Shown: positions 12,401 through 46,968 of the stretch, piece after piece | Layout of the letters: each line of letters starts with the position of its first letter | Position numbering within the stretch: position 1 is the first letter of the stretch | From: Lingula anatina | Taxonomy: Eukaryota; Animalia; Brachiopoda | Direction of reading: 5' to 3' | Length of the DNA: 64,000 nt | NCBI GenBank assembly: GCA_051362555.1 | Contig: CM120641.1 | Coordinates: 38,694,401-38,758,400 of the forward strand | The notes under the pieces: generated by a model | Told to the model about the DNA's origin: nothing | Database searches by the model: none | The model's input: only the letters and a program-made list of their open reading frames with translations | Position numbers and translations under genes: made by a program

Positions 12401-13980
12401 AAAAAAAAAAATAGTGCACATTTTATTAAATCATCAAATATGAACAGGATGAACTAGATACACTCTACAGAAGTTGCAGCATTCTAATCATTCTGATAAT
12501 AATTATGAGGATTGCGACTTGTTTATATTATTGCAATGCACTGGTTTCCTTAAACAGTAAGTTGGTGCCTCTGACATGATAGCTACACTCTTTATCCTTC
12601 CATTACATCAATCATCAATCATATACGTGTCTAACTAGCTCTCCAATGACCAATAAATGCCAGTGTCTAAATTCCGTGTCGAGGTGCCAGGAAAAAAGAA
12701 ACAACCGTAGGCGTATTCAATTTTTGAAAATAGACAACAGTCTTCAGTGTAGGACGCTCATTTAACGATTAACAAACTGTAGCGTCGCCTTTTTTGTCCC
12801 CTTTCCTGGTCTTGGCGTTGACTGTGCTATGAAAATGAAGACAATCTTCTTCTGGCACGCGGCACCTGCCAAGTACCCTATCTATCTATTTGCTAATGTG
12901 GCATTAACGCAACTAACCGCGCAATGTACATGATATACCGGAATCACTAAGCCTATGGAGGAAAATTGTATTGTTCTTTCACCAGCTTACAGGCTTGCCA
13001 CGCCGTTAAAACCATCCTTTCCAGATAGTTTGGGAATGACAGAACAAATATGATAATAAAACAGAATAGATAATTTTGGTCACTTTGGTTAAAAAAGAAA
13101 AAAGTTGTTTTGTATTTCACACATTATTAGACTTTTCAGATACATACGAGTTCTACCGTCTATAAGCGTTTAAACTAAAACAACCTTTAGTGAACAGACG
13201 ACTAAAAAAGATGAAAATAAGGCATTATAGTAATATACTTCGTAATATAGATTGTAGAATTAGGCATATAACATACTTGGATTTCAAGAAACAAGGATAC
13301 ATTGCCTTGACGATGATACATGACGATGCAAGGGGATGCGTCGTCTTTTGGGTGTGCATGTTTCAACTTTGTGCGTGCGATGTGCCACATATCAACAGTA
13401 CCGTGAATAGTTAATTCAACAAAGGGTTATAATATTATGATCACTGCGCAATGAAGCTAAAGCGATCACGTCTGAGGTGCACTCACATATGTCACCATGA
13501 CAAAATGCGATGTCAACAGAACGCCGGAACCGGTTTTTATTGGTTGCTAAGTGTCCAATGTGTACGCGATTCAGAAACCCATCACATTGTGTCTAACAAT
13601 AATTGGCTGTTAATTTATTAATTTAGAGACGCCCTCGCCCATGCAATAGGCCTACTATTTTAAGATTGCTTTTCTTTACGACCCAATCAATGCCATCAGC
13701 TATTCTAGTCGCGCGCACACGTTGGTCACATTGGGAATTCCACGCCATCTCATTTCCCAGGTATATTAGAGGTAACATGATTGTTTGAGGGGTAGAATTA
13801 GAAGAACACCGACTTGTGGAGTCAAATAAGCCAAGCTGAGCACTTATAGTAGACAACCTAGCCGTTTTGATCAGCATAAAGGATTAACACATTTAGAAAA
13901 GGATTCCCTTTTATCTATAGGATATAATATACGTTTAAATATATATAGACAGAGAGACTGAGTAGTACTTAAAGAGCGGC

Positions 13981-16900
13981 ATGATGCTAGCAAAACTTTT
14001 AACGGGAGTATTACTATCGTGTCTTGCAACGCTGATATTGGGGATCCCAGTAACAGGTAAGTTTTCCAACCTTTCTGTTAAAACTGTTTCCTTATTTTCT
14101 TATTTTCTTTTTTTTTTCATAGGCGACAGAGAGTCAAACGCTAAGCACAATGTATGAGCATTAGTTCGTTTATTCATTGTTACAAAACTGCAGGCAGAGA
14201 GTACAAGAAATGCAAATGAAATCAAAATGTATAGAAGACAGCAAAACAAGTAATGCATACGTTATACTTACATACAGAAAGATTCCTTACATTTGAAGCA
14301 GGCAGAGTACTTACGGGGAGCACTTGAATTAACCAGGCTCAAAGGTTGGGGGGAGGGGAGGGGTTTTGGTAAAACTACCATTTAGTTTTGATCTAGATTC
14401 TATGTCTTTTTTCATGGAAGTAAAGAGTAGGCTAAAACCTGCCTGCTACAGGCCTGACCCTACCTTTCATGGAATTAGGAATGCGCACTTAATTTGACCG
14501 AAATGGTCCACTCTGAATCAAAATTTAGGAAAGATTGTATGCTATTTTTCAGAATACATGTAAGTCAACTAAGATGGCCAAAAGGTCCACATTTTAAGAA
14601 AAAAAACAGCTTCTTTAAAACTGATGGCTGCAGACCAAATTAAAAAAAGAAGGTTTATATCAAGCATGATACATTTTATTCAAATGGTATTGACATACCC
14701 AGTTTTTTATATATTATATTTTATTATATATTATATATAAGTACATTTGTGTATCTCTCAACTTGTTGCAGTCGTATATGTAAGCTGTTAATCTCTTAGA
14801 AAAAGTAACAGCTGCTAGGTGTACTGTCATATATTCCTACATTGTAATAAAATATTACATGTGAAAAAATTACAGTTAAACGTTGGCTGTATTTTATATA
14901 TCTATATTCAAAATGTTTAAACAAGATATTTGTTAGACACCCAACAAAAATATGAAGGGATAATTAATGCAAAAATCATGGACATGTCACGGGTCACTCC
15001 ACTTTCCTCAATTTAACAAGGAAACCCACTCAGCTTTGTCTCTTTGAGATAGTGTGAATACTTTGAAGCCGGGTTTTTATTCTGAATTTACATTGGTTTG
15101 GAATAATGATAGTCTGACTGAAACTGAAGTAAGTGTTGTATATACGCCGTGCGGTTCCCGCTCTCTCGGCGTAACTCCCTTTCTGTTTCTCTCTTGTAAA
15201 AAGAAATTGATTTATGACATGAACATATAACATACAACTATCGGAACGACGGTTTTCGTGCAACTTTGATTAACCTTTATTAGGCCTGCTGCAGTAAAGC
15301 TAGCCAATTAATGAAACACAGACCCTACTTCAAACCATGTCCTTATTTCACATCAGGATCCACATAAACACTAGATTGCAAAGTATAATTGGCATAATTG
15401 TCAATTACAGTTTCAGCACCAAATTGAAGTATGCTTAAGAAAACCTTGTCAACCACACACCATACCCATATGGTATTGTTTCTTTTCATTTGCTTAACCG
15501 CTAAAGAAACAAGAGGGGGTATAATTCTATTAGTCATACGTTTATTCATGATATACTCCTTTTTGGAGATATTTTTTGTCGGTAGCATGATGCAATGCCC
15601 ATGGATCATACTGCCTGCTATAATAGTTAAAATCAGCCTGACGGTTCTACTATTCACGATGGATAAGGGGGGGGGGGGGGGGCAGAAAAAAGAACAGAAC
15701 TTGACATGGATGAAGTAAATCGTTTAATTACAACAATACCAACCGCAATCTGAATGCTAGGTAAAATACTCATCAGCCTTTCCTGACGCGAGTACTCTCT
15801 CAACCTTGAGTGAAAATTAACTAGAGTGATTGAAAGCGGTGACCAAAGAACAAAATCGGATCACAGGAAAAAAAGTCAAATGATTCTTTCCGAGCCCATT
15901 ATTAAGGAGGTTTTGCTGCTACGCCGTGGGAAATAACTTAGAATGCAATATGGAGTGGGGACACTCTTAAGACCAAAAGCATGTTTTAAAGGTCTTTTTT
16001 TGTTTCCGAACTGGGGATGCTGGGTTGTGAGATATGTAAAGGTTGACACAGTGAAGATCTTTATGAAATTAGCGGCAGTGGCATCTACACATTCAGTTCA
16101 AAGTTCCAACATTTAGCAATAAAAAAACAAAACAAAGTGCTACGCTGCCTTTGCCAGAGACCATGGCTTCTAAACAAAACAAAAGATAATTACAATCAAT
16201 CGATCTTTGGGATGATGCCAAGTAGTTAAAAAAAGAACGCTATCAACGTTGGAACATAACGTCACACGCGTTCACAAAAATACACTCATTAAATGGTTGG
16301 TTCTGCCACACAAGCAAATGAAGCGACTAATATTGCTAGAAAAATTCATTTAAAGAATTGTGTAGGTTATTGATGTCGACAAAAAGTTTCCAGACTACAA
16401 AAACAACGTCATTAGGATTATTTCAACGTTTCTGTCGAAAGCTGATAGAATGCTCGTGTAGTATAGCATTTATATATAAAGGAAAAAATATTGGTAATCA
16501 AATCATTTTCTTCGTTGTTTAAAACTGTTTTTATGTAGAAAAATGGTCTGAAAAATAAAATCAGAGAGTGGGCCGTGTATCTAACGTATATTGTCAGATA
16601 AATATATTGAATCCTAACGCGAAGTTCACGTGCTTTTCTCCGAGTTCTTGGTATACACTGTGTTTAAATAAAGAACTCTTTGGGGGCACTTGGTATACTA
16701 CAAAGAACTGTCACGCTCTTACGACCGGTATATTACTGTTTTCTTTACAAGGAAAGCTCAAATTGAAGTGTCATAATATTAAAACCAGTAGTGGGTGGAA
16801 ATTCATTTACGAAAATTCACCAAACGTCCTTCACTTACAAATATTCTTGACTGAAAAGTTGCCTCTTCAATAAAACCTACTCGTCTTTATTGATTAAGAA

Positions 16901-18124
16901 TTATTACACTAAAATAAAACAACGTTTCACCTTCGTGAAAACATAAACTGCGTGGATAGCCATACGTAGTTTGTTTAAAACACGAATACTAGTCTTTATC
17001 GCTGCCCACGTGGTCGATTTTTCACAACAGATACCACGATTAGCGGTCATATATAATTTTGCACGTAAAATCCGTCTCTTAATAGATCGCAGCTTATTGT
17101 TGTAGCTTTCATAATAGCTATAAGTGCCATAATTATGAAATTAATAATTCAACGCGCATATTTCTTGAATGCCAAGCAATGTATCTTGCGGAATGACAGT
17201 GAAAGTGAAGAATGAATAGTTCGTGAATGCTGCAGAGATCCAAAAGGAATTTCACATTGTCTTATTGTAATCACACATCCCACCCCCTTGTTTCGGCCCT
17301 TCTAACACAACATTGACTTACAATTTCCCCAATTATTTTGTCATTGTCTCTCACGAATTAGAAATCTTCGCTATAACGAACAGGATGTCCCCCGAGGTTG
17401 TGGTCTTACTGCAATCTCAATTTAATGTTTTCTCTAATTGCTCTTGAAACATTGTCCGTGGATCAACACCATTCAATTATGTAAATTAGTCCGAATCCCC
17501 AGTGTGAAACGTAATTTGGATTAAATTAATTGAGGCGTATTACTTGATTGCACCAACATTACCGGGACAGAGACGTTTCCATTGTAACAAGTAAGTGGCT
17601 CAATAAATTGGTAGCGTTAGATTGCAGCTACAATATCTTCATGAAGACAGTCCGACTGATGAATACCTTACTACCAGTTATTGTCTTGGGGTATCCATAT
17701 TTTTAACTAGTGTCTTTACTTGATGTTTGTTAGGCGGCCTTGAGGGCAATGGTCGGAACTTGGTCTTTCAGCCGAAGAAATGGTGTTTTCTGTCTTGGGT
17801 GATTAAACGTAAAAATGAAAGACTAACTTTTTTATCAGTTTCCGAATTGAGGATATTACTAAAATGAAGCGAAAGGGTCTTCTGTATGGCGTCTGAATAC
17901 CCATTCAAAGTCTTTGGTGCACAACATCAATAAGTGAATTCACCACGCTACCTACATATTATGATAGAAAGTTATACAACAAATGATGGGTACAATGGGA
18001 CAAATACTATCAGGCCCAGTACTGTATGCAGATAACAATATGATCGACTAGAATGTTGCCACTAATTGGATCTGTGGGACCTGATTTATCGACGCATGAA
18101 TATGCCCCTCCTTACCCGTCAGTA

Positions 18125-18193
<69 letters not shown>

Positions 18194-21114
18194 ACATTTA
18201 ATATGGAATATTTTTTCCAAATCATTTTTCTTTGATTTTTTCCCTACTTTTCCGACTTATAAATGAAAACACGGGTTTAAATCTTGTTTTAATTTAACTT
18301 TAAATAATCTATGCAGTGTAATTGTGACATCAGCTCTTATATTGAATTCACCTAACTAAGCAAACAAAAATACATGGCTGTTTGTAAGTTGTACAACAAC
18401 CATTTCAAGCGTTATTTCAATTTCCATATTTTCAAAATTGTCATCTATTAAAGAGTTATACGCTTCACAAGGGACGCTTATAGATATCAGTGTCTAGTCA
18501 CAGCAATGGTCAATCGTGCGTCTGGCCTCATCTGGCTGCTACTAGGGCCCTAAAGTGGCAGGGTATTGCTTCTGACAGATTTGTTGGAGTTAGGACTGGA
18601 ATAATATTCCAGGAATCAGTCGGTTTGTTGTAAGACCAGTGGACCGATAATTCGGCGAGTGATTGTCTCTAGGCTTCAAATCTGGCGATCTTGATGGCCG
18701 CAGTAGCTGCTCAGTTCCTTGGTTCTGCAAGTAATCTTTAAATACAGGTGCTCTGCGTGGGTAGTTTTTTTATTTTGTTAAGTAGATTTGTTCCTGAGGT
18801 GCACTCTAAAAAATAGTTCAAAGGGGGTTGTTTTCTAGAATATTTGTCTATTTGTTCTGGTTCAGGTTACTATCGATGGCTACCAATGAGGTTGGTTTGG
18901 GCACCAACGTGAATTCCACCCCAAATACAGATGCTCCCACCGCCCCAAGTCGCTCTAGAAGCGACACAAGCTTAGGGACCGTTCACATGGAAAGTCTATT
19001 TTCTAAAATCTATTTTCTATTCGCGGTATCTTGTGATCACGGTCTGTGCCCTGAATATCCCGCGGCGTAATTACTGGCAACGCGAGCCAGTTACTTCCGT
19101 GATCACAAGATACCGCGAATAGAAAATAGATTTTTAGAAAATAGACTTTCCATGTGAACGGTCCCTTAGTCGCAGGCCTCTTCGGAATATTTGTGAACTC
19201 AAATTGGACCAATGTTGCAGCTCAGATAAAATCTGACCTCATAAGTGAAACCATATATTTCCATTATTATGCCCAGAAAAGTTAACGGTTCCCAACTCAT
19301 TGCAGAAATAGACGGCGATGTTGTGCTGCCCACAGAAGGTCCGCCTGGTATAATAACCTGCTTAAACCAGTCTGCAGCTTACGATGGGCCTTAAAAAAAA
19401 CCTTTTGGTGACAATTTGACCCTCATTCTGACCGGAATTGGGTGTCTTTGTTAATTTGTATCAGCGAAACCGAAAGAACAATGGTTCCTGTTTCCCTGTG
19501 GTTAGTTCTGGATGTCTTGGGCATGGCCTCTGTGTAGTCTGGGCATATCTCTGTAAGACTGTGCGGAGCGTTCTTAGCGACACAATAATCTGTCTGGCAA
19601 TGTTTATCTGTTTTGCGCCATTTTGGCGCATATCAACAGTGCTGTGACAATGCAACAATGCTTCTCTCAGTTTACGCACCGTAACATCAGCTATAAGTAT
19701 TCAAAATTTCAAAATCATCTGTGCAGCCTTTGTCGAAATATTGAAACTTTTTCGACTGACCATGCTCTGCCTTAGCCTAGTCCAAAGAGTGCCTCCCAAA
19801 GAAATCACCAGACATTACGTAATGCAGCAGTGCTTCAGACAAGACAGTCAGTTAATTGTTACTGACACACCTGACTACACATTAATCTATTCTCATAATC
19901 CACATGCATGGGTGTACGTTTTAGAAATAACACATTTTAATCTTGAAATACCATTGAAATCATAATATTCTATATAAAATGTCAAGTCTGTGTATGCCTT
20001 GATTTATTCAGAGATTAATCTGAAAAAATGCCTCCAACTCAGTATACCTGAGTAATGCCAATAATGGCTGGTTTCACTGTTAGTAACAGTTTTTAATGAT
20101 TCGTCGGTTGTTCAAATAATCTTCACAAATACCATCTTGAAGATATCGTCTTACATATCGTCATACATACAGTATAGATTTCGAGTGTCAGTTTCTTCAT
20201 TTCCTTTAGTAATGTACTTAAGCGGCGACAGTGAGCAAATTAAACCATTTAACTTGGTAACCACACAACGACTAAGCACAGGCGAAATAATGCGATTTAA
20301 TTGGATAAGTTTGGTACACCTCGTAAGAACGGCATTCCGAGAAATAACATGTTGAGGTACGACCATAGCATTCAAAAGAACTGAAACCAAAGATGATAAA
20401 ATGCACGCAAATATCTGGTTGCTATTTTGTGGCATTTATTGAATAATACCGCCCGCTTATTAAACCGTTGGAACAATATACTTCATTGTTAAGTGCAAAA
20501 GATATGATTTGTATAGCTGAAGTTGGCTCTAAAACAGGTGTTTGCGTTGGGGATGACAAAACTGAGGTACCCCTTGGCCATAATTCAAGAGTAGTACCGG
20601 TGTAACAGGAATGAAAGTCCGCTAGGAACCGTAGTCCGCTTCCCGTTACTTTGTACAGGTGACATTCGTCCCATATACTAATCCCAATGTTCCAACTAAC
20701 CCTAACCTGGACTTATCATATGGGAGCCCGGACTTCCATTCCTAGGACTTTCATTCCTGATACACCGGACAGTAAAAAATGTGTTAGCCATTATTCGGGT
20801 AAAAAAGAATATTCAAATTAGAATTGTTGGTGATATCAAGGTATTGGTTGAAAAAGAAATCAAATCCTGAAAAATCGACAGTTTTGAGACAAACATTACA
20901 AGTAACATCATATATTAATCAAAAGAAAACCGTGTGTCCTTTCACGTCAGTTGGCTACATCCGCTCAAGGTATCGCCAGTACATCCTCCCTTTCTTACTC
21001 TTTTCTCTCGCATTTTACGCCCGTGTGCCCTCCAACAAAAATAACAACCTTGTTTTGTCAAGAAGGGCACCGGGGAGCAATGAGAATGTGGAGGAGGAAT
21101 AATTTGCTGAATAA

Positions 21115-21146
<32 letters not shown>

Positions 21147-22279
21147 AGGCCCGTAGCTAGCAATTTCAAAAGGGGGGTTCTTTTTCTTAAAAAGTGGACC
21201 TTTCTTTTACCATATAACCTTCGTGTACCTAGATAAAATTTTACCCAGAGGGGACCTTTTCCCGGTAAAGGGGGTTCTTTCGACACCCCCCTCCCCCCGG
21301 CTACGGTCCTGACCGATATGTTGCACAGAAATGCAGCATCCACCCTTAAATGTTTGTTGATGGTTAAATGTGTAGGTGCCATGCCGGATCTTATGTAAAT
21401 AGCTTATATGTGATATATAAATATTTCAATAATTGTGGTTTCGGAATTTTTCTTATGTTTTTATTCCAAGTTTTCGCTTTAATATGCACAAGAAAAGTTG
21501 CTCTCAACGGGTTTCTTAAATGATGAAATTCTAAATTCCTCCATGTTCTTATCTAATAGTTATTGCAGTAATACCATATTGTAAACTTAATCCACCACCC
21601 CCACTACGCCATAGAAGGTTTTATCGATAGAAAGCTGGCTAACGTTCCTTTAAGGTCTCATATCTTCGCTAATTATTTGTCTTATACAGACTGGCTAAAA
21701 CGTTTATTTATAAATACATGACGTTCGTGGACGCCTTGATACATTTATATCTATTGAAATTTTATTGGGTTTTAACTTGAAGTACGTTAATCTGTTTTTT
21801 ACCTATTGATAAAAGATATGGCGAAATCAACCGCAAAGCAATGACGGATTTGTTAAAATGCCATGAAAGTCAATTGGTTGAAAATTGCTGTCATAAGTAT
21901 TTAATAAGGAATAAGTATTTTCTGTCTTATAAGCTCTATAAAAATTATCCAAACGGGTTTGAAAGTGTTACATTTGTTGCTGCAGTGCATTAACGCTCTA
22001 ACGTCACTCCTTGTGTAAGAGAGTAGCCTGACTAATATCTTGTTTTAAATTTCAGATGAAGACAGCGAATACCGATACCAACAAAGAATGTCACCCTATA
22101 GGCTTCTCCAAGTGATCGCCGACAGACTCAATTATTTAGAAAAACTGGGCCAACGCCATTGGCCACGGTTAGAAAAACCAGAAGGTTTATACAACAGCTT
22201 TTCGAAAAGAGGCGCTTGCATTTCTAATTGTGTAGGCTCAGCTGGTTTAACCCACGCTCAGTGCCGTGATTTGTGTTAG
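13981..22279 (+). CDS. Secreted prepropeptide (99 aa) yielding a CxxxC-x10-CxxxC hairpin peptide; candidate neuropeptide / framework-XIV conotoxin-like
   Basis: Exon 13981-14056 encodes the signal peptide MMLAKLLTGVLLSCLATLILG-IPVT and ends at a phase-1 donor AG|GTAAGT. Exon 22056-22279 follows the acceptor ttttaaatttcag and continues in the same phase: DEDSEYRYQQRMSPYRLLQVIADRLNYLEKLGQRHWPRLEKPEGLYNSFS-KR-GACISNCVGSAGLTHAQCRDLC*. Signal peptide, spacer, dibasic site and C-terminal 4-Cys peptide form a classic prohormone layout. Extra symmetric exons inside the 8-kb intron cannot be excluded. Confidence 0.8.
18126..18190. repeat. Compound (TA)n(CA)n microsatellite
   Basis: TA run followed directly by a CA run. 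Confidence 0.95.
18975..19165. mobile_element. PIF/Harbinger-like palindromic MITE, family B copy 1 (internally deleted)
   Basis: ~65-bp near-perfect TIRs starting GGGACCGTTCACATGGAAAGTCTATTTTCTA, with a TTA/TTA target duplication. Same family as 41684-41940. Confidence 0.9.
20597..20768. mobile_element. MITE with ~24-bp TIRs and an internal TAACCCTAACC motif
   Basis: CCGGTGTAACAGGAATGAAAGTCC ... GGACTTTCATTCCTGATACACCGG, plus subterminal AGTCC/GGACT repeats. Confidence 0.8.
21146..21311. mobile_element. MITE with CAGG...CCTG termini (family C)
   Basis: TIRs CAGGCCCGTAGC / GCTACGGTCCTG with GGGGGTTC subterminal motifs. Preceded by a ~30-nt poly(A). Confidence 0.7.
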
Positions 22280-28350: not shown

Positions 28351-28485
28351 GGAAGTGATATGGAATAGCTTAAGCTTTACGTGAATTGTTATAGGAAGTG
28401 ATATGGCATAGCTTAGGCCTTACGTGAATTGTTATCGAAAATGATATGGGATAACTTAGGCCTTACGTGAATTTTTACAGGAAGT
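28351..28485. repeat. 43-bp minisatellite, about 3.1 copies
   Basis: Units start at 28351, 28394 and 28437. Consensus GGAAGTGATATGGNATAGCTTAGGCCTTACGTGAATTGTTATA. Confidence 0.9.
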
Positions 28486-31862: not shown

Positions 31863-34800
31863 TTATTGGATTGTACCAGTGGCTAATCCACTTACAATTC
31901 GTTGCCACAGTTCTTTCTTGCATGACTTTGCACGGCGTAGGCTCTGTAACAGCTCGTTAAACTGTACCATCCCCCCGGGAGACATACAGAAAGCATTCCT
32001 TGCTATGCAGATGATGCTGACAAATTCATCATAGTCATTTGGTGTAATGTGGTGCAAACGTTGATGAGCACACTGAATAAACCTGGAAATTAATAACGTC
32101 AACACATCATTAAATCACTGGAGGGTAATGAGAGATTAAAATGTGCAAGCTTTGTTAGGTATAAAGTGGAGTGTGAAGAACAGTTCAAACAAGCATAAAA
32201 GTCAATGATCCTTTAAAGAAATTTATCTCAACCCAAGACAGTTCTCCTTGTCTATTATATATCTATATAAAGAAGTGTAAAGATACAACTAGAAATTTTC
32301 ATGTATGAGATGTTTATTTTTTGAATTCATCTTGCTTAGCCATGAAAGCTTGGTTTTTTGTGGTCACTTCTCAATGTCCTTTAAGTTACAGAAAACGTGT
32401 GCATTCACTCTACTTATTGTTCACACATTACTTAAGGATAAAAAGCATTTAGATTTTCATTGGGGGGGGGGGGGGGGGGGGAGGCATGTTATTCAACTCA
32501 CATTTGTAGGCACTTCTGAACCAGAGAATTAAGAACTGGAGAGCGCAGCTGAGCTGACACTTGAGTTGGGTTGTTTCTGGCCAGATAGTGGGCTGCTTCC
32601 AGGGCTATGTCCTGCAGGACAAATGGACTGACCACGGCATTAACAGTGGTAGCACAGAACTGCTGGAGGTGGCTGGTACCTGGAATAAGGTCAAGGTGAT
32701 GAGCTTAGACAAGAAGAGAAATAAGTGCATTAGGTTTCAATACACTACTCTTAAATTCATGTTTGCTAAAATAGTCATCATTTTATTGCAAAATACTTAT
32801 TAAACACAGATAAAGGATTAAATGACATAAAAACACACCTCTCCATTCAATTTATTTAAACATCTGTATTCAATTCCTTTTGGGTAAAAACAATTTATCA
32901 CCCTACCTAATTTGATGGCCAGTTGCAGCAACCATTTGACATCTTCCCCATAGGGAGGACTCCTTGCATACTTAGTCTGTGGACGATCATCATGTACACG
33001 CCTCCCTAGTGTCTCCATGGCTAGCATGCCCACTCTGTATGCAGCCACCAAAGAATAGTTCATCTGTGTGGAGTTGTGCTGCATGGCTGCTGACGTGGGT
33101 GGCTGTTGCTGTTGTTGAGATACAGCAGCCAGGCCACTGGTCGTCATTGTGGTCGGCAAATACTGAGACGTGTCCACAGATTGGACCGGATGGATTTGGT
33201 TTGGTCTGGTGTGGACCGCGTGCACCACCTGGTTGGTAGCATACTGTACCTGGTGGTTCCCTGTAGATGACTGCACAGTGTATACTGCAGTTGAGCTGGG
33301 CTGGAGATTTTGTATGTGAGCCAGCCCTGCATATGGAGGTGCTTGCTGATTCTGATAGCCATATGCCGCTAGATAGCCAGGATGCATAGTATGGGCGTGA
33401 ATGGGAACATGGGCTTGAGTATAGTGATGATGGAACCCTGGATGTGGATGGACTTGGTGTACATAAGGTACATATGTGTGATGTTGATGAGCCAGGTGAG
33501 GATGAGGACTAGTGGCTGATGATATAGTGTAGTGTAAATGTAATGGTAAAGTTACTGGTACCTGAGCCATGGCTCCAGCCTGGCTCAATGCAACAACCTG
33601 GACTGGAATAGGTGGACTAGTCCTTTCTATATTCTGTGCTGGGTTGCACTGTACTGCAACCATTGCATTCTCCTCTGCTGCAACCACAGATGCCTCTGTA
33701 ATAGGCAGAGCAGTGCACGCCTCCTGTACTGCTTCTTCATACAATTCATACCACCTACGGGCAACATCAAATAATACCTCTGGGTAAACACCGCCATCTT
33801 TTGCCGCAAGCTCTACAGCATTGCATGCCTTTTCTAGTTTTTCTCTGCTTTGTTCTTTGCATTGTATCAAAGCACGTTGAATCTCAGACGGATTTAATGC
33901 ATGAGCATGTGGGAGACAGGACAGAGCCAGCTCTGCAGCAGCACGGACCATGTTCGGGTCTCGGCCCCTTGATGCTTTATCAGCCAATAAGGCACACTCT
34001 GGCGGTGTCAGGTGACCTTCCCAGGTGTCAATCAAAATCTGAATAGCAACACTGCCCACTTCCATAGCTTGACCTGAAATTTTAACAATATTCATATTCA
34101 AATCTTTTTTTCTTGTCATCTACCCTGTCATCTATCTATTTAAACCAATGTTCATATATAAAATTTTTAAGATAGAGGCACTGAATCTCAATTTCTATGT
34201 TGTATCAATTATTTCCCTTCAAAAAAATTACTCAAGAAAATACATACTTAATGGCATGGAGTTGAAACTGCAAAATTAATGACCCTGACCATAAAAACCC
34301 AACATTAATTGCCACATTGGCCAATGGTCACTTGCCTGTAATCCAGGACACGTGTGAGGAGTATGTTCTGGACAGCCAGTTAGGAGACACACAGTTGTGC
34401 AGCCCCAGAGCATACAGCCCTATCTGGAATGCACAGATGTGGAGTGCCCTATGAGGTCCAGTAGGGTTGTTGTTGTTGGGTTGAGTAAACAATGAAGTGG
34501 AGCTGGTGCCTCCTGCCTTGGCCAGAACTGTCTTTGCCAGCTCATTCATGAAGTGTGCAGATGCCTCACTGGGCTGGTTGGGAAGGGTTGGGACCACCCT
34601 GTTCTTGCCTTTATATCTGAAATGGAAATGGAAAGAAGGGTAAGTTTAATATTGACAATCAATGTCCAAAGAAAAACACAAATATTTGACAGCACATATT
34701 TTTTTCTTTTTTGAGCCATCATTTACAAAATCTGATTTCCATCAAGATATTGATGTAAAGAAAGCAAAGTTAACAAACAGCAACAAAAGCATTGTGGAAA

Positions 34801-37800
34801 AGCTAACCAAAAAAAAAAAAAGAAAGAAAAAAAAAACTCAATGAAGTTCCTACCTTCCTTTAATACTAGGTGACAGTCCTCGGGAATCCACCAGCATGCT
34901 GGGCCCAGCTCTGGTATACATCAGAGGAGGGCTGAAATGAACCATATCATATATATATATGATAACCATGTAACAATTGATTCAACTTTAAGGAAAAGTA
35001 TATGAAAAAATCCCTATCCTTTCTTATTGTTCCAGCAACCAAGACATAAATTGCTGTTATTCCAAACATTAGCATACAGTGAAGTAAAAAATGCAGCTGG
35101 GCATTAAAATTTCCCACTACAAAAAATCAAGGTTACAAGGAACTGTTGTTATTTATTAAAGTAAAAAATCAACTGCTTATAATATTGTGTATTTATTAAC
35201 ATTAAAAACCTTGCAATGAATTCACGATTATGAACCAAGGACATGAAAGAAAATCCAGCAAAGACACTTAATTTATCAAAACCTAGATGCCTACCTCTCG
35301 TTATCTCTAAGTTTTGCCCTTCCCTTGTCCCCTGAACTGCTGGAGCCTATGGAATCTGAACTCTTCCCGCTGCTGCCACTGTCACTCCCAGGTCCCTGGT
35401 GCTTGCCCCAGTTACGACGCACTAGGGTTGGGGAGTTGTCACTGGACGTGGTCTCTGGAGCACTGCTATCAATACTGGCCATACCTAGAACACAAACAAT
35501 TCATACATAAGGCTATGTCCAGTGTGTTATTCTCTGCTCCTTCACAAGAAGTAATTACTTCATAATATATCTTATCATATATTTGTCAGAACTTGACTTA
35601 ATTGTCACAACAAAGGTTTCATTATCTTAATATCACATTGGAGGTTTTAAGGTACATTAAGTGATCAGAAAGACTTACCTGCAGATGGTTTCTTGTTTGT
35701 TTTCAGTATAGAACTCCTGAACTTAGCTTCCCAATCTTTACAGTTGTACTCATCTTCTTCAAGGGCAGAGCTATCATCATCCATTCCACCACTAATGCAA
35801 ATCAAAAACAAAATTTTATGATAAATTTTCAAACATGATAATGACTCACATGAACAAAAGGCAACTCAAAACAGATTTTCAATAGTCTGCCTTCCATTTT
35901 AACAACTCCACTCCATACTACTATGGCAATAATTTCATCATCAAATAAATTAACATTTCATAGATGATTTAACTTACCAGTTTTAAGTATTTGATAAAAC
36001 CTTATCTTAAAGAAAAGAGTCAAAAATGTTCAATATGTACCTTTTATAGTTTCTAACCAGACCCCCCTTAACCTGTGTCCCATTCTGCCCAGTGTGTGGG
36101 GTATGTTCCAGGTTGAGATAGTCCAGTCTCTGGGAGCCTGAGGACATGGGCAGGCTAGACCAGTTGCCACTGGTGCCAGCATGGGAACTGGGATCTGAAG
36201 ACAAGATAAAACCAGTCAATGAGAAAATTCTCTTCAAGTTTCACAAAAATTGAATGCATTGTCAGCTGGGTAACATACGTGATGATCAATGCCATCATAA
36301 ATCAAGATCCAAAAAATAAAACTTTAGATACAAAAATGTTGAGAAAAAAATTGTTTTTCAATGTCTTAAACAATTTAGATAACCCATAACTGTAAAACAG
36401 TTTTAACTCACTCACAATCATTTTTACATCCAACCCCAAACCTGCAAACAATACTGTACCTCCTCCATTAGCCAATGCTGCTGCAGCATCACCATTCGCT
36501 CTTCCCGATGAAGATGATCTTCCCTGGTCATCCACAAAATGACCCATAGGCTCTCCCCCAGGAGGTTGTGGACAGTGGACACTACTAGTGCCCCCACTAC
36601 TACTGGGGTGACCACTGCCTGCCCCCGAGCCACTGCGCTGGTTAGACTTGGTGAGGTAGGTGTGAAGTGGGGGAGCCTTATAGTGCTGATGGATCTCACG
36701 ATCCAATATCTTGTCCATGATCTGAAAGAAATTACCATCATTTTTAATTTTTATTTTCCTATCTTTCTGCTCTATGTTGTTTCATGAGAATAATAATTTA
36801 TAAATCTTTTTATCTGTCATCCTGTTATGAAGAAACTTAAATGCAAATATACTTTATTATTTAAGGGTAACAGCAATAAAGTCAGGTAAAGCATTTCATT
36901 CTGTAAAAGCCTTACTTTGGACAATTTGATTGGGTCATCCTTATAGTGGACCAGCATGGCTATGGCCAGGTCCCCTCTCTGTCTTCTGGTACATTCACAT
37001 AGAAGGGGATGCTCAGCCTCGGAGATGTTTGCTTTTAGTCCTGGATGTGCAAAATATAGCAAACTTAAAGGAACATCCAACTCCAGACTTGTAGTCCTTC
37101 TAAACAGTAAACACTACAACTTCCAGTTTTGCTTAAGATGTTGGACAGTCTTATAAAATTGTGATATGGATAAAAAATCATGATTGAAATCAGCGGATCT
37201 TAGTTTATCATACACTTATTTTACCATCAAAGACAAGATCATCTTCAAGATAGGAGTCCCTGTCTCCAGCTAAGTTTTATCATATATTATAAACATACCA
37301 AGTGCTGCTGTTGCTGCTTCAAAGCCCAATTTTTCATCAGTAGGCAAGCGCATTGGCCCATTCCCTGAAGCAGGTCGACTGCTGGTGTTGGCTCCATTCA
37401 CAGGTATAACTGAAAGTGAAGGAATGGTATACTATGAGACTCTTAGGTTTATCTGACAACATTATCTTAAATTAATTTACCGATAGAAGATTTGGAAACA
37501 CATTGTTCATAGAATTAATGCCCAAGTTTAACTAGCCTTGTGATGTAAGCAAAAAATAAAAGTAGGAAAAATTGATCAAGTTTCCCATATCTCCCCCCCC
37601 CCCTTCTGACAAAAGGTGTTTTTCTTTTGTATATACAATGTGTGTTCATTATCTTACCTGGTAAACAAAGTGAATCAAAGATAAAGCTAGCCAACATGAG
37701 AGGCAACAAGGCCTCTCCCCTTGATCTGAGTTTCCCATCCCTGAGCTGCTCGGCTCTATCCCTGATCACATTCAGCTCTGCTGGACCAAGGGGGATCTTC

Positions 37801-40800
37801 TTCAATAAGGTGACAAGTTCAGACTCTTGGTTGGCCAATTTCACCTGTAAGTATATATATTTGACAATCTAAACATAAGCAATGATAAATATTATGAAAT
37901 ACCTATGCAAACACATGCTTTTTAAAAATAAAATCTTGCCAAAATATTTGAAAAATATCAAGGTCAATCATACATGTAAAAAAATCTACTAGAGACTTTC
38001 ATATACACAAATACATGAATTATGTGACGAAATTTTGGTAACAATTCAAAATGCAGTATCAAACAATTATACACAGACAAAAATTGAGTGCAAACATCAA
38101 ACTGTAAATATTATTCATGTATACTACAAATAACTTAAAAAGATGTGTGATTATCTCAAAACAGCAAAGGGGGCACAATGCTATTATATCAATGCTTTAA
38201 TCCCATGTGAAAGCCGAAGGTTTATGATTGTCAAAAACATATGAGCATGAAAAAGGTGTAATACAAATCTCGCCACTTTAAGCACCACTGTATTAAAGAA
38301 CTCAAATCATAAAAAGCACAAACTCAACTATTACCCATTCAACACCACGTCTGACTTTATTTTAACCACCCAATACCTACAAACAGAAAACAAGTGTGAC
38401 TGACCTCTAGTGCCTTGCTGGCAGCAGGTTGCCTGGGCATTTCCAGTCCAAACATGCCCACCTTGAAGGCCAGGTGGTGGCACTCTGGGTCCTCTAGGAG
38501 AACACTACACAGAAAGGCTGCCTTAGCCAAGGTGGTGCTGGCAAAGGAGCTTGTGTTGTTCTGGTGCTTCTTCTTTTTACCTAGAACAGAACAGACAAGT
38601 GTCAGTTAATCGTAAGGCATGGAGTATACACAACTAAACTGGTGCAATCTGTAGTTGTCTGCATCCTTCTGATATTAAAACTCCTTTCATCAGTTTTAAA
38701 GATTCAAGACCCCCAAGGTTTCTGTACACTAAGAACAAGTTACAAGTAAATGAAAATTAACATAATGACTTACAAAACAGTATAACTATGATTACCCCCT
38801 GTGCTATACTGACCTTTACCATTTTGTTGACTTTGTTCCCCACAAACATCAGGTGGGTTGGCCAACATTTTCTCAGCCAACTGCTTTGCTAATTTACATG
38901 CAAAGCTATGGCCATGAGCATACAGAGCTTCAGCTCTGCAGAATAAAATCTAAAAAGCAATAAAAAAAGGTTGAAAGTGTTTTAATCATTAACTTAATAA
39001 TGAATAGCTTATTAATTTGTATGTCTGTTAAACAATTCAACATAACTCATTTCTGATTTTTATTTCAGACACTAGTATTGCAAAACATTTCTCATAAAAA
39101 ATAAAATATATAGATTAAATAAATAAATAACCAAGAAGGAAATACACAATGTAAATTTAAAAAAATTCAAGTAATGCAAAGTAAAACATTCAGCCAGCAA
39201 AATTTTTGCCAAGTATTATCCATAACACAGTCAGTTCATTGTTATAATGCTTAAAATATACCTCTTGCTGATTGTCCATTTTCCTAATACCAGCAAAGTA
39301 ATTTGGTTCATCAGATTTCTTGTCTTTCTTCCCAAAGTCTTGAAATCTAGATTTAGGATCATAGAAGTACATCTGATACTCGTCACTGGACTGTTGCGAT
39401 TCAGACTGGTACACATCCAGAGCCTGTGCACCCTCAACTAGTGGGTGCTCAGGGTTGGTGTCATTCACTTTAAAAGTTGATGGGCCAGGCCCAGAACCAT
39501 CAGAGTCAATGTCATCTGCTCTGATCCTATCAATGGCATTTCCATTTGCAGAAGAACAGCCATCCTTTGCAGCTCCTGCATCCACGCAGAGACTATGCAT
39601 ACCATTCCGTATGCTGGCTGTGGCAGTCTCGTCTGGAAGACTGGAATCCGAGTCACGGCCATTGAGCAAGAGGTCAGTTTTTAGATTTTCACTGAACCCC
39701 TCTGAGCTTGAACTTCCAGCCCTGTCAGCTTTGACATGACCAGTAAAGAAGTCAGTGGTTGTTACCACTGCTTTACCCTGAGATGAGGATTTCTCCACAG
39801 TTTGATGGTGGAGAGAATGTGAAGTATGTTGTGTATCAACTGCTAACCTTGTTACCTGATCGCTGTGAATACCTGCACTACTTATATTACTACTAGCACC
39901 ACCAGTGGTGATTGAACGCTGCAAACACATCGAGTGCATTATGTCTTTCTCCACATAGGTGACCCCTGCAATGTGGTAATCTGTCCAATCCAACTGACAA
40001 GCTTCAATGGCTGGCTTGAACCCTGAGAAGATTTCAATGTCATTCTTTTTTATAGCACCTGAGTTGATGACCGACGGACCAACTGTTCCAGCAGCTGCAC
40101 TATTCCCTCTTGTTTTCCGCACTTTATCAATTGTTTTTATGTGCCAGTCCTTGAACTTAATGTTGAAGTCATCCCTCTGAATGGAAGACAACTTCGGGTT
40201 CAGTGCAGCCATTCTCCACAGAGCTACGATCTCATCGCACAGACTGGAGCCTGCATGCTGTGAAGAGCTGGAAGCACCAGCGCCACGGTTGTTGTGCCCA
40301 CTGCTGCTGTTGTGAGAGGCTGATATCTTGGTGCTAAACCACCAGGCCAGTATCTAGTGTGGAAAATAAATATATCTATTTTCATTTTTTAGAGTATTTT
40401 ACAGATGTAGATTTTCAGTTTCCTACAGATTCATGCGTGAAAATTGTTGGGGTTAACAATATTCTCAAATTCTCTTGAAAGATACACACTCCAGAATCAA
40501 AAAGCACACTTGCCTCATCAATAATGAAAATCCATTATAACATTTCACAAAAAGTGCAAATTAAACCAACAACACCATATACTGAAACCAACAGATAAAA
40601 CTTTATTATCAAAACTGCCAGTAACTCACATTCTCACAGGCAAGGACCTCCTCTGTCAAGATCTCGAGTAAAGGAACAGCATTACTGTCATGCCTGCGCA
40701 GCATTTCTCTTACAATGGAGAGCAGGTTCCACATGCCCTCTGGCTCACGCCCACGCAGAGGTCTCAGGAGACTCTGGTACTCGGCTGCAGCAGGGGGTGC

Positions 40801-43800
40801 AGTAGATGACAGATAATTAACATCACTGGAAAAGAAATTACAAGATTTGTATTAAGCAATCTGGTGCATAATGAAAGATTTTGATATAAGCATCATCACA
40901 ATTTGATTGATATACAAAGAAGTTTAGTAAAAAAATCTATCAAAGACAAGCGTGGTCCAATTTTGGTCAACACAAGATTTTATTTTCTATCTTGTTATAT
41001 TTCAATTTTTTAAGATCCAAAAAAAAATTTTTTTACAAAAAATAATCAGGTACGCAAAGTGACCTACAGACCTATACACCATGTTGGTAGTCAAACTGAA
41101 CTTGGCCAATGTTTTTCTTATATTTTGTCGCAGAGTTGTCTCATCTAGACACCAAGCAGTATGTTCACTTGCTGAAGGGCCTGCTGTGGGATCTGAATTA
41201 AAAAAAAAAAAAAATAATAACAACAAAAAAAATGAAAATAAAAACAGTCAAATATACAGTTAAACACTTGGGTAAATTAATGAAAAGTAATAGTGTTTAC
41301 TTAATCCTGATAAATATAAAAAAATTGTTAGAAAAATAATACAAAAACTCATAATTTATGACTTTGCAGGCCAACAGAGTGAAGGTTGCTTACACTGGCT
41401 AACCATCACAAATCCATAGTGAATTTGTCTCGTTTTCTTTTTACCATAATAGTCCATTTTTTTTTTTGAATACTGAATAACTATGAATAAGGCAACCTTG
41501 AAAATTAAAAAGAAAATATGAACCAGAAATTGAAAGAGAGACAGGCACATGTCTTACCTGGTGCTCCATACACAGTGTTGATGGCATTCTGCTGTGATGA
41601 CAGGAGTTCATCAAGAAGTCTCTGAGCTGTTGGGAGGATCTGAACATAAAACAAAGTTTGTGCAAGTTAACTCTTTATTCTTAGGCTTCGTTCACATGCA
41701 ATGTCTATTTTCTAAATTCTATTTTCTATTTGCGGTATGTCTTATGATCACGGTCTGTGGCCTGAATATCCCGCGGCGTAATTACTGGCAGCGCGAGCCA
41801 GTTACTATAAGTTACTATAAGTAACTGGCTCGCGCTGCCAGTAATTACGCCGCGGGATATTCAGGGCACAGACAGTGATCATAAGATAGCGCAAATAGAA
41901 AATAGAAATTAGAAAATAGACATTGCATGTGAACGAAGCCTAATAGTTTAAAAGGTATCCTCCCTGGGAGATTTTCCTGCTTGAAAGATATAACCTTGCA
42001 AACAAAGCAGCAAATCTGTCAAATGTACAGACACGAAGCAGAAAATAATGATGAGCATGAACCTTAATGCTTTTTTTGTCAATTTTGTTGCAATATTTTG
42101 TGATGATTTATCACATAATTACCACCACTTTTCAATTATGTACTACAAGTAACATCAACATTCAGAAAACAAATGAAGTGTAGGGGTTCAGTCCAACGGA
42201 ATTACAAAGTCACATGCTAAAAATGCTTATATGTGAAAAAATAAAAATTTCATAAAATTGCATAATTTAAAGAAAAAAATTCAATCAAGCTGGCTTTTCA
42301 ATCATAAACATTACCTCCTTGGTAGATGTAATTAAAATGATTTATTTCTAAATAAGTAGCCAGTTAATGAGAATGCAATGTGTTTCTGAATTTCAGATGG
42401 AAATATCAACATTGCAGATTTTTATTTGTGGGTTTCTATTGTATTTAAGGTTTGAATGGGAAAAGATATGTAGCTTTGCCATATATACAGACACAGATAA
42501 TATGGCTTTGACACTTTTCAAACAGAAGTATACCTTTCAATATCTATACTTCCTGTGCATATACTACTGAATTGTCGCATTCATTCTAAATGAAATCAGT
42601 TAAATGCTCCTAATTGCTCAGCCAGATTATTCTTATGCCATTAAAAAGATATGTAGATTATAAAGTTAAATGATATTAAGCCAGTCCATTAGATGATATA
42701 TTTCAAGGTATTAAAAAATTATGAGAAGTGCTTACCTGTTGAGGTAACTCGCTAATAAGATACTGAGCAAATTTCTGCAACTGATCTCTCTGTAAGCGTG
42801 ATAAAGACTCTGACACTGGAGCCCTCAGACACACTGATGTGGCCTAAAATATTATCAATGTTTATCAAATATGCTCTTACAAAGGTTTCATTTTAACAGT
42901 ATGGCCACTCCTTACTTCATATATCTAAGACTGCATTTGATCTTTAAAAAGAGGCAGCAGAGTTACCAACAATTCAACTACTTCTGTATCAAAGGTATCC
43001 ATTTAATTGAACAGTTACAAGGTATTCATTAAAAATTTGAATTACAATCTTAAATTCTAAAAAAAAGTACCAAAAGTGACAAAGAAAGTCAATCTTTCTT
43101 TCAGAATTAAAGTTAAAATATGTTACACAAACAGAAACAGGGCATTTACCTATAATAAACTTTATCAATACAGAGAGAGAGAGAGAGAGTACCTGTAGGG
43201 TGCCTCACCTGATGTATTCTAAAGAGACACAAGGCTACCACATGGGCACACCATGATGCAGTGCTGTTACAAGTACAGTTACAGGATGTTATCCTCCTAC
43301 GGTCAAACATAACAGCCACATTGAAGGAGCCCTTGGTCTGGCCAACACTTTGAGGGGGAATAACTGTGGCACTCAAATGAAACCCTGAAAAGGAAATAAA
43401 CATGAGTATCCAAAATGCAAAGAAGTCTGAAGAGAGAAGCAATGTTTTATTTACAGACTGTATATATATATTTGTATTTATACAGTTCCTTACCTATTTG
43501 AAGTGCATCTTTTACTGCTTTGGCCTTATAAAGATGATCTCCCTTTTGAAACTCGTCTGCACTGCCATTAGCAAGGCAGGAATACAGCCTACAAAGATAC
43601 AAATTAATATGAGCACTAAAACCAAATTGTACATGCATGCTTTGTCTTAGAAATCTAATCTACGCAGCAGTAAGTGTGGCATGTTGGTAAATTACTTTGG
43701 GGGAAAAAGCAACATTTACTGGAACAAAATCCTCTGACAGTCCATTAAAAGGTAAGAAGAACAAGAAACATTCAGTTATATTTAGCCATTGCATCACAAA

Positions 43801-46800
43801 AAGCATGAGTATTGAAAGTGCTATCATTATGTCTTATCTGAACTTGTATAGAAAAGAACTATGACAATCAAATACAACTATTTAAGATGAGTTGATTGCC
43901 AAGAGAAAATATTCAAGGTGCAATAAGATGCATGCAACCCATGACTTAATCCAACAGAAAAAAAAATCAGTCATAAGAACCACTCATTAGATCCACATTA
44001 AATTCTGCTTGGATGATCCAAGAACTTGTTGAATTACCTTATATCTTCTTCATTTTCTGGGAAGCTCCAAAAGGCAATACGCAATTGCAATTGCTCTGGA
44101 ATGGGTGGGTAAAAGTGCTCCACTACCTCAAAGGGAATGTGACAAGCAACTCCTTTGGAAGCTAACTCCACCAATGAACACACTTTCTCTCCTGCACAAA
44201 TGTGATGAAGAGACTAATGATTATGTCAAAGCAAAACCAAAGTTTAATCAAAATTATTTAATGACAAAGGGAGTTAATTCTTAATTTTTGTTTTTCTCTA
44301 CAAGAACAGCCAGAACTTAACTTTTCCTTAAGCTGGCTATGTCTTCTGTTAGATTATTTAAGGATAATTGGAACTCTTACATGAGCCAGGTTAAAAAAAT
44401 GAATAAAAAAATAAATGACATATATCAGCTGGGTATCAATAGTTCAGTGTTGAAATATGTTTAAAAAGCGCCCCCCCCCCCCCCCCCCCGAAAAAAAGGG
44501 GATAAATTTTCTTCTTACATTTCATTTGCATTATCAGTTCCCTAAATGAACCAGTCTATCCATACACCTATTTTAAGGTGTAAACTGAGCTTCACATGGG
44601 TCTCATTACATCAGGAAAGCTTATGTAAACTGTTAATGTAACAAATCTCAATTATCCCTTCTTTCATGCAGGTGGATGGAAAAAAAACCTCGATGACATT
44701 TAAAGACATACCATATATTGTATCATATCATGTATTGTACAGACATATAAATAGCTGTCAACGTTCATTCATTCAACAAAGAATTATTCTTCTTCAGGCA
44801 GAGGCTTTTTAAGAAAAAAAATCAACGCTCATAAAATAAGTTTGCCATTAATGATATATATTAAAACATTGGGGCCTCACACAAATATAAAAAAGAAGCA
44901 ATTTTGTGGAGGGTGATCCATTAAAATTGAACAGGCCCTTATCTTGTTTGTAAGATGTCCAATTACTATCTTGGCATTCAAAATCTTTATCAATATGGTA
45001 CTTGCTTTGTTTTTGTTCCATACATGGATATGTGTGCATCTAACCCCGTCTGATGTTTTACGAAATGTTCATTATATTTACCAAAATATTTGAACTATTC
45101 TAGATAGTGAATTTACAGGGTAGAAGATAACAAAAACAAAATTACTGAAAAACTTACAATTTTCTGCGTCATTAATAATGTCCCCTGATTCAAATTAATA
45201 CAGATACAAAAAGATATTTAAGTTGTTGTTAAATATCACTTAAACAACGTTACGTGATATGTTCAATATGATCAGGGCTTTTTACTGCAGCTCCAAAGAG
45301 TATTCACAAGCCATGCAGATCACAAGTAAAGGTGTTCTTCAAGCACAGGAAAAGGGTTTTAAAACAACATGTCTGTGTCTTTGTGACAGATATCATTCTA
45401 TTGACAAGCTGGCAACTAATATCAGGGTCAACCAGAGGACAAATGATTGCCATTAATTTTGTCCAATAATCACCAGAAGGTAGATGATAGTCACCTTCAA
45501 CCAGCTGCACCTACGTCTAACTTAACACTCTTAAATACCTAATCTTTATGTTCTTTTTCTTATCTATTAACTCTTTGTAACCCTATTAACCTTTGCTACA
45601 GTATAATTATCTTGACCTCAGTTGACTTTCTTTGTAACAATGCTTCTGCAAACATAAAAAAAAAACCTCTACAAGCAGGCCAAAGTGGCTATGAATATTT
45701 TCTCAAATGCCTTTTCTCCAAAGGACTAAAGTTAGCATATATAGTAATTTTACAGGTGTTAATTAACTGAGACATAACTACCTGAAATTAAATGTTAAAG
45801 TTGTTGAATATAAAAATTAAATTATGCCAGTAGTTTTCACACAAACAATGAGAACCAGATGACAAGGGAATCTGACTTTATCTGACACCTGTCCCTCTTT
45901 CGTAGTCGAACTGATGACTATCTTAACTGTCAATCAGATAACACACATACCCCAATTACATTTATTCAACATAATATACCACAATGCACGTGTATTTAAT
46001 TCATCAGTTCAGAGCCAGTAGTATATATGATTAAAAGATAAATATATGTATTTGTCTATAAAATACTTATTTGATGATTTTCCTTTAATTTTTAAGAAGT
46101 AAAACAGTAGATCTATAACTGTCTCAGTGTCGCTTTTTTGAGTTTGCTGACATTACATGTGGATTTGATTTACTCACTGGTACCCAGACTTGGCTATTCA
46201 AGTAAGGAAATAGTTTTAGAAATACATCACTGTTTTCAAACTATTATTAATTTTTTTCTGAAGAACTGCCTTATACTTACTGCACAATTAAGCCTTTAAG
46301 AGGATGTAACTTTTATGAATAGACTACTACTTTTCTTTTTATAAAATGACAATCATTTTAAGTTAAGTATTGATTCCAAACTAAGTATTCCCGTTTTATC
46401 CCATTTATTCAATTTGAATATCATAATTTTTGCATTTAACAACTCTGGGAAAACAAACAGTAAAAATGTCAACAAAATCTTATGCACAATTGCAAATAAA
46501 AAATTAATAAGTCAATGTCTTGTTCTGTGTTGTGACTCTGAAATCAATTTGAATGTGCGTCATATTCAGTAATGCTGATGTGTGTGTAACCGATGCAGAG
46601 TAGAGTTGAGAGAAACAAAGACTAATGGCTGCCAGCTGTTCGCATCGCCAGGCAAACTTCAAAATGGACAAAATTTTTAGATGTAAACCATACCTAGGTT
46701 TAAGTCTCACGAATAGGTAAATAAATGAAAGGCAGTTTCTCCCCAAAAACAAACAGAAACAGAATGTAATTAAAAGTTTCTTCAAGTTGCCGTCTTTACC

Positions 46801-46968
46801 TTCTGCTCCGCCTTGAATCTGACCACCATTTTGTTTCTTCCAGCCTCTCCAGTTGTTACACAGACTCTCCGGTTCGCTCAGCCATGAGCACGAGTCGTCA
46901 TCGAACCGATCACTATCTTCAAAGGAAAACCGATCAGCTTCTCCATCCCAGTCGAACATGAAGTCCAT
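31863..46968 (-). CDS. ZSWIM8: Zinc finger SWIM domain-containing protein 8 (Cullin-RING adaptor; target-directed miRNA degradation; EBAX-1/Dora ortholog), about 23 coding exons
   Basis: N-terminus DRFSFEDSDRFDDDSCSWLSEPESLCNNWRGW. BC-box SLVELASKGVACHIPFE (~44038-44191). SWIM finger FNVAVMFDRRRITSCNCTC..ASWCAHVVALC (~43209-43385). Also PTLPNQPSEASAHF, GLHNCVSPNWLSRTYSSHVSWITGQAME, AAYRVGMLAMETLGRR and the C-terminal FCMSPGGMVQFNELLQSLRR..KELWQRI. Probable 3' UTR extends to a minus-strand AATAAA near 30280. Confidence 0.97.
41684..41940. mobile_element. PIF/Harbinger-like foldback MITE, family B copy 2 (257-bp near-perfect palindrome)
   Basis: GGCTTCGTTCACATGCAATGTC...GAGCCAGTTAC [tataagttactataa] GTAACTGGCTC...GACATTGCATGTGAACGAAGCC. 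Flanks TTA/TAA. Inside a ZSWIM8 intron. Confidence 0.92.

Follow-up and report, generated by a model that had tools for sequence, protein, structure and literature searches.

A two-exon prohormone-type gene of the brachiopod Lingula anatina with a predicted helix-loop-helix product similar to R-superfamily conotoxins

A stretch of 64,000 nucleotides from Lingula anatina (assembly GCA_051362555.1, contig CM120641.1, positions 38,694,401 to 38,758,400; hereafter the window) was analyzed in this study, which confirmed that it carries a real, apparently unannotated gene of the prohormone type. With a probability of about 65%, we interpret this spliced and weakly expressed gene as encoding a secreted 99-residue product that is cut at a Lys-Arg (KR) site and yields a two-disulfide, helix-loop-helix peptide of 22 residues acting as a neuropeptide or hormone, the gene being the likely brachiopod orthologue of the endogenous snail gene whose recruitment gave rise to the R-superfamily conotoxins. 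A 76-nt signal exon and a phase-compatible exon 8 kb downstream had been proposed from the DNA letters (the original prediction), and the coordinates given for them are correct.

The gene structure was observed directly (Table 1). The open reading frame (ORF) starts at an ATG at position 13981, with a further in-frame ATG at 13984, and the 76-nt first exon is followed by a GTAAGT donor from position 14057. At the other end of the intron, the acceptor AG occupies positions 22054-22055, and a CTAAT branch-like site is present at 22032-22036. The second exon of 224 nt terminates with a TAG stop ending at 22279, and the joined 300 nt encode the 99-aa precursor. Between 8.5 and 22 kb of the window, the first exon is the sole open, ATG-started, phase-1 candidate that is 55-111 nt long and has a GT[AG]AG donor, and no paralogue of either exon was identified within the 64 kb. 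The intron of the Lingula gene, in phase 1 and 76 nt into the coding region, is consistent with a published bias toward phase-1 introns in genes for neuropeptides, toxins, and secreted proteins (PMC12621736, Fig. 5 legend).

Splicing and expression were also observed. Four of nine Lingula-labelled RNA runs (X1, X2, X4, and X7) were aligned, each sampled in part (6 to 25 in 100), and a splice joint was listed only if at least three reads supported it. In X7, four reads with three start places link position 14056 with the beginning of exon 2, which is the 14056/22056 junction that had been named for checking by RNA sequencing. All four reads contain one extra acidic codon relative to the window directly after the acceptor (22056-22066). 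No splice joint was listed at this threshold in X1, X2, and X4. A few exon reads are present in X1 and X4, with the first mate nearly always on the minus strand, which fits a plus-strand transcript in stranded libraries, and X2 has practically zero exon reads. Expression in the sampled runs is low, with an exon depth that does not exceed about 1 to 3. Five of the six exon-2 substitutions listed, all from X7, are synonymous, including all three that fall within the mature peptide; the synonymous share expected among possible transitions is 35%, giving P of about 0.02 for the substitutions listed. The single replacement lies in the spacer, as does the single exon-2 indel, which comprises one whole codon.

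Sequence and splicing together support the layout foreseen in the original prediction, a 99-aa prohormone ending in KR and a four-Cys peptide, and the arrangement of a secretory precursor is complete, with a signal peptide (judged by hydropathy only), a spacer, a basic cleavage site, and a C-terminal peptide. The exon-1 product is a hydrophobic stretch of 25 residues, the h-region of which is strongly hydrophobic, with Kyte-Doolittle 9-residue means reaching 2.6, and a predicted signal peptide cut after G21 (G21/I22) is plausible. The mature 22-mer has a calculated monoisotopic mass of 2173.91 with two disulfides, and with one Arg, one Asp, and neither Lys nor any aromatic residue its charge is near neutral. 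A six-frame scan of the window yielded a single instance of a dibasic site followed by C-x3-C-x9-12-C-x3-C and a stop, whereas none of 150 Markov-simulated windows contained one. The bare C-x3-C-x10-C-x3-C spacing is less restrictive, with two instances in the window and an occurrence in 4 of the 150 simulations. Its second occurrence (52481-52540, plus strand) has no preceding dibasic site, lies antisense to an intron of an exchanger gene, and is most likely due to chance.

The likeness of the peptide to conotoxin vil14a is a direct result of sequence comparison. In a phmmer search of 177,635 PDB sequences, vil14a (6EFE) was the best match of the 22-mer (E 0.016; 11 of 22 residues identical, one gap), and the residues aligned are those previously claimed to be common to the two peptides. 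The other two PDB rows correspond to a ribonuclease inhibitor (E 3.7). With the whole exon-2 product as query, vil14a was still first (E 0.18), and the alignment was confined to the mature region; likeness between toxins and toxin doppelganger-related peptides (DREPs) has been described as confined to this region as well (PMC10501145). Outside the cysteines, 7 of the 18 positions carry the same residue as vil14a; the binomial P is 5e-5 to 1e-3 and becomes 5e-4 to 1e-2 once gap placement is allowed for. The mature region is thus similar to R-conotoxins beyond its cysteines. By eye, both have an aliphatic residue after Cys2, [ST]-[FYH]-x-[EQ] before Cys3, and [TD]-[ML] before Cys4. A helix-loop-helix with two Cys per helix, as anticipated, is predicted by an AlphaFold2 model of the 35-aa C-terminal fragment made with no alignment (mean predicted local distance difference test score 79). 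Fold searches with this model, which is too short for them to be informative, gave no Foldseek match at E 0.001; in VIA the best Z was 3.4, vil14a was not listed, and the scorpion peptide 6OFA was found at Z 2.8 with a root mean square deviation of 1.8.

An endogenous counterpart of the R-superfamily toxins is an idea already published. A Lottia protein that is still uncharacterised has been noted as similar to these toxins (PMC13311285 section 2.6.3, citing Moller 2018), non-venomous molluscs other than Lottia readily yield related sequences (PMC13311285), and the toxins were suggested to be likely mimics of a still-unrecognised DREP (Koch and Safavi-Hemami 2026, PMC13311285). According to the same paper, reports of R-type homologues are confined to Mollusca, and an annelid one is expected. 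In addition, a nemertean proboscis study in 2020 included putative transcripts of the R-superfamily-like kind among its candidate toxins (PMC7460313), and one weakly expressed transcript matched vil14a with E 1e-4 at 5.7 transcripts per million (PMC7460313 supplement row). The original prediction had viewed the Lingula peptide as an orphan signalling peptide and as the endogenous counterpart or ancestor of the toxin. The likeness to vil14a supports a counterpart, and "ancestor" is too strong because the host is a brachiopod, whose gene is at most an orthologue of the recruited snail gene. Consistent with orphan status, no receptor was found in the literature consulted; the notion itself is in print (PMC13311285 section 2.6.3), and the novelty is thus below what had been estimated.

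Searches for relatives of the precursor were negative within their reach. For the exon-2 product, no word-sharing relative was detected among proteins of 40-128 aa, Pfam returned no match, and ESM Atlas returned nothing or only low-score bacterial ScpA rows. Two HMMER matches among 1.84 billion representatives were tandem-repeat ORFs aligned to the spacer and were rejected as artefacts. These results do not prove absence because the power is too low for a conserved core of 22 residues. The lack of a self-match suggests that the precursor is not annotated in the protein libraries searched. Neither four precursor motifs nor the name of the annelid neuropeptide QERAS, considered below, occurs in the supplement of a brachiopod neuropeptide survey that names Lingula 430 times (PMC8557429), and the precursor was not found in the available supplements of PMC6425005. 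The terms vil14, R superfamily, and framework XIV are not mentioned in the main text of PMC12621736 or in the accessible part of a 2022 preprint. Within the literature searched, which did not cover subscription papers, no report of the peptide from a brachiopod and no link between QERAS and conotoxins was identified. What appears to be new is the brachiopod member of the family and the by-eye link to QERAS, both of which are absent from the literature and libraries searched.

By analogy with established prohormone biology, the precursor would be made in neurosecretory cells and its signal peptide removed, disulfides C1-C4 and C2-C3 would form, and a convertase of the PC1/3 or PC2 type would cut after KR. 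The product then released would be a 22-residue hairpin without amidation (calculated mass 2173.91 Da), which may signal via a cell-surface receptor, most likely a G protein-coupled receptor. Several points weigh against reading the gene as this neuropeptide or hormone and as an orthologue of the recruited snail gene. The splice joint is supported by four reads from one run only, the synonymous tally covers the listed substitutions and may be incomplete, and a phase-1 intron is common among secreted proteins and is not diagnostic. The C-x3-C...C-x3-C hairpin has evolved independently in plants and scorpions (PMC7191063), and the Cys motif alone proves nothing because both groups carry it. The E value of 0.016 is modest and partly carried by the four cysteines, and the Lingula loop has 10 residues versus 11 in eight of eight listed R-conotoxin rows. 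Finally, no precursor homologue was recovered by any sequence search (short proteins, HMMER representatives, Pfam, and ESM Atlas).

The peptide might instead be a lineage-restricted secreted alpha-hairpin whose likeness to vil14a is convergence, with the shared residues demanded by the fold (helix cap, packing). Seven identities at 18 non-Cys positions argue against this, as does the lack of any other hairpin peptide at E up to 10 in the PDB library, which includes the scorpion peptide 6OFA and presumably other scorpion and plant hairpins. Convergence of the motif across plants, scorpions, and cone snails is known (PMC7191063), and the failure of sequence searches to recover a homologue and a loop one residue off the R-conotoxin length would fit it; there are published accounts of related sequences from a limpet, from additional molluscs, and from a nemertean (PMC13311285, PMC7460313), however, and we regard convergence as unlikely. 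There is likewise a small chance that the peptide is homologous to R-type peptides and has a defence or exocrine role as an antimicrobial, a protease inhibitor, or a weak potassium-channel modulator. Plant alpha-hairpinins and scorpion CS-alpha/alpha peptides have such roles (PMC13311285, PMC7191063), secretory tissue is among the expression sites of some DREPs (PMC10501145), and the nemertean match comes from a proboscis transcriptome (PMC7460313). The near-neutral charge, the lack of Lys and aromatic residues, and the lack of a second copy within the window speak against a role of this kind. Moreover, whereas high expression and hypervariability have been ascribed to toxins (PMC10501145), the Lingula gene is expressed at a low level and variation in its mature region is synonymous-biased.

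It is very improbable that the gene is an artefact composed of two chance exons or a decayed gene. Low depth, a joint in one of four runs, and the absence from the searched protein libraries could be expected of an artefact, but the spliced reads at the predicted GT-AG sites largely refute it, and the frame-keeping indel, the synonymous bias, and the absence of the motif from all 150 simulated windows speak against it too.

A further candidate relative, overlooked in the original prediction, is QERAS, which has been described as annelid-only. The QERAS precursors of Platynereis (PMC3890597 supplement) and Urechis (PMC7737342 supplement) each comprise a signal peptide, a spacer, KR, and C-x3-C-x10-C-x3-C, and a QERAS match is listed from the nerve cord of the earthworm Eisenia (PMC5688751). 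The 3/10/3 spacing after KR, counted by eye in the annelids, is identical to that of Lingula. Six positions were compared: M/L/V after Cys2; S/T, F/Y/H, and Q/E at -4, -3, and -1 of Cys3; and T/D and M/L before Cys4. By eye, R-conotoxins and Lingula agree at these positions, and Platynereis QERAS fits at six of six and Urechis QERAS at four of six. The joint background chance of this signature is 1.5e-5, which is not usable as a P value because positions and classes were picked after seeing the sequences. Several of the six positions would be needed by any stapled alpha-hairpin, which counts against the link. Identity outside the cysteines is 2 of 18 (chance level), and in the three residues that follow Cys1, which are partly shared by Lingula and vil14a, QERAS is different. 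Eleven conserved residues (the QERAS motif) separate KR from Cys1 in QERAS versus two in Lingula, and the acidic and aromatic composition and the C-terminal extension of QERAS, which is long in Urechis, are unlike the Lingula peptide. From this by-eye sequence comparison, it is possible, at somewhat less than even odds, that QERAS is the missing annelid member of the family of the Lingula peptide and R-conotoxins. Tentatively, the Lingula peptide, its molluscan R-type counterpart, the nemertean vil14a match, and QERAS could represent one ancient lophotrochozoan family of helix-loop-helix neuropeptides with an orphan receptor, in which case R-conotoxins of worm-hunting cone snails might act by imitating the QERAS signal of annelid prey, with potassium-channel block not being their main effect.

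Table 1. Positions within the window of the parts of the Lingula prohormone-type gene.
Feature	Position	Strand	Remarks
Coding exon 1	13981..14056	+	25 full codons and the first base of the next; predicted signal peptide; sequence and RNA reads
Coding exon 2	22056..22279	+	Acidic start, spacer (pro-region), KR, mature peptide, stop; sequence and RNA reads
Intron, phase 1, GT-AG	14057..22055	+	7,999 nt; several multi-copy repeats inside
KR, predicted prohormone-convertase site	22205..22210	+	Sole dibasic site in exon-2 product
Predicted mature 22-residue peptide	22211..22276	+	C-x3-C-x10-C-x3-C; free C-terminal Cys; no amidation Gly
TATA-like element, putative	13940..13946	+	About 40 nt upstream of ATG

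The gene is flanked on the left by ferrochelatase and a DC-STAMP-like gene and on the right by ZSWIM8, RPS14, and a cation/proton exchanger gene. The earlier description of about 20 kb of surrounding non-coding DNA is fair, as the nine ORFs tested in the interval from 8.5 to 31.8 kb all fell short of the Pfam cut-off; Rfam yielded no match at the gathering score. ZSWIM8 is a complete multi-exon gene (31866-46968, minus strand), of which 23 pieces were aligned against the Lingula protein. One of its exons is 99% identical to Lingula anatina ZSWIM8, with the next best among the 120 matches listed at 85-89%. Over all aligned exons, identity to the Lingula protein averages 95.9% (98.9-99.7% on two long exons), and identity to one annelid, one nemertean, and two molluscs is 58-64%. 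These values identify the brachiopod Lingula as the host of the window. The interval separating RPS14 from the 3' end of the exchanger gene holds a second small, secreted-looking gene (50831-51834, plus strand). Its signal-peptide exon is located near 50831, and a further exon, at 51523-51834, carries a tandem pair of Cys-rich repeats and a weak DUF1496 match just under the cut-off (E 6e-4).

Multi-copy elements in the intron of the prohormone-type gene (18990-19160, 20600-20760, and 21100-21265) attract most RNA reads in all four runs, and 71-88% of aligned reads continue into unlike sequence. The repeat copy at 19098/19099 is without about 32 nt found in transcribed copies elsewhere. Inverted copies of dispersed repeats that are 75-79% complementary were identified at 21204-21269/26436-26501 and 14581-14636/21148-21203. 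The intergenic region before ZSWIM8 contains a tandem array of three 43-nt copies (28351-28479), in which identity to the first copy is 81-91%.

The Lingula gene answers the expectation of an R-type peptide beyond Mollusca expressed in PMC13311285. If the brachiopod gene is orthologous, the family would date to the lophotrochozoan stem, and if QERAS belongs to it, three separately catalogued things would merge into one family. With a predicted peptide of 22 residues and 2173.9 Da, receptor screens gain a defined ligand that can be synthesised, and the gene offers a testable target for R-conotoxins, the target of which is stated as undetermined in the toxin literature. At the same time, the peptide is one more orphan of an established discovery type, the DREPs, and not a new kind of system.

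Comparison with known peptides helps to place the gene. R-superfamily conotoxins (vil14a/6EFE, vil14b/c, flf14, as14, and teretoxin Tan14.1) have framework XIV, and their C-terminal C-x3-C...C-x3-C is also found in Lingula. The Lingula gene differs from them in its brachiopod host, a 3/10/3 rather than 3/11/3 loop, the lack of Lys and Tyr, and low expression; with neither Lys nor an aromatic residue, the peptide is unlike those channel blockers in which a Lys/Tyr dyad is present. It is not a conotoxin proper, which has loop class 3/11/3 and originates from a conoidean venom gland, and Lingula is not known to be venomous. For vil14a, I-IV and II-III pairing and loop class 3/11/3 have been described, and its target is given as undetermined (PMC4278219, PMC4494067, PMC9897318). 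Plant alpha-hairpinins and scorpion CS-alpha/alpha toxins share the Cys motif and C1-C4/C2-C3 pairing (PMC7191063) but have no sequence match to the Lingula 22-mer in PDB at E up to 10, and alpha-hairpin likeness across groups has been treated as structural convergence or as unresolved (PMC13311285, PMC7191063).

Several other families were considered and set aside. Similar to the Lingula peptide, the hairpin DREP (contryphan-Vc1 family; Koch 2023, PMC10501145) is an endogenous lophotrochozoan peptide found via a cone-snail toxin, and the first intron of its gene is in phase 1. However, the suggestion in the original prediction that the two might be identical was mistaken: the hairpin DREP has one disulfide and a beta-hairpin, versus four Cys, two predicted helices, and the vil14a match in Lingula, and it has several peptide copies in Aplysia and a three-exon ORF with a phase-0 second intron. 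The Medial, Tail, Triangle, and CHH DREPs have another Cys number or layout, and Platynereis MNC has a different Cys pattern (PMC3890597). PXRX or LFRYamide-like precursors (PMC6425005) carry an N-terminal C-x3-C-x7/8-C-x-C followed by P[FM]R[WY]amide, differing in both spacing and position. None of the oyster mollusc-specific families has the Lingula precursor layout in the text descriptions available (PMC8398477). The closest system is the proposed molluscan R-type DREP, which, like the Lingula gene, comprises an endogenous precursor in a non-venomous animal with a mature region similar to R-conotoxins; it is unnamed, uncharacterised, and known from Mollusca only (PMC13311285), and is likened to the Lingula gene here by its description. 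The Lingula peptide is best placed as a brachiopod member of this proposed R-superfamily-related peptide family, being neither a conotoxin nor a hairpin DREP.

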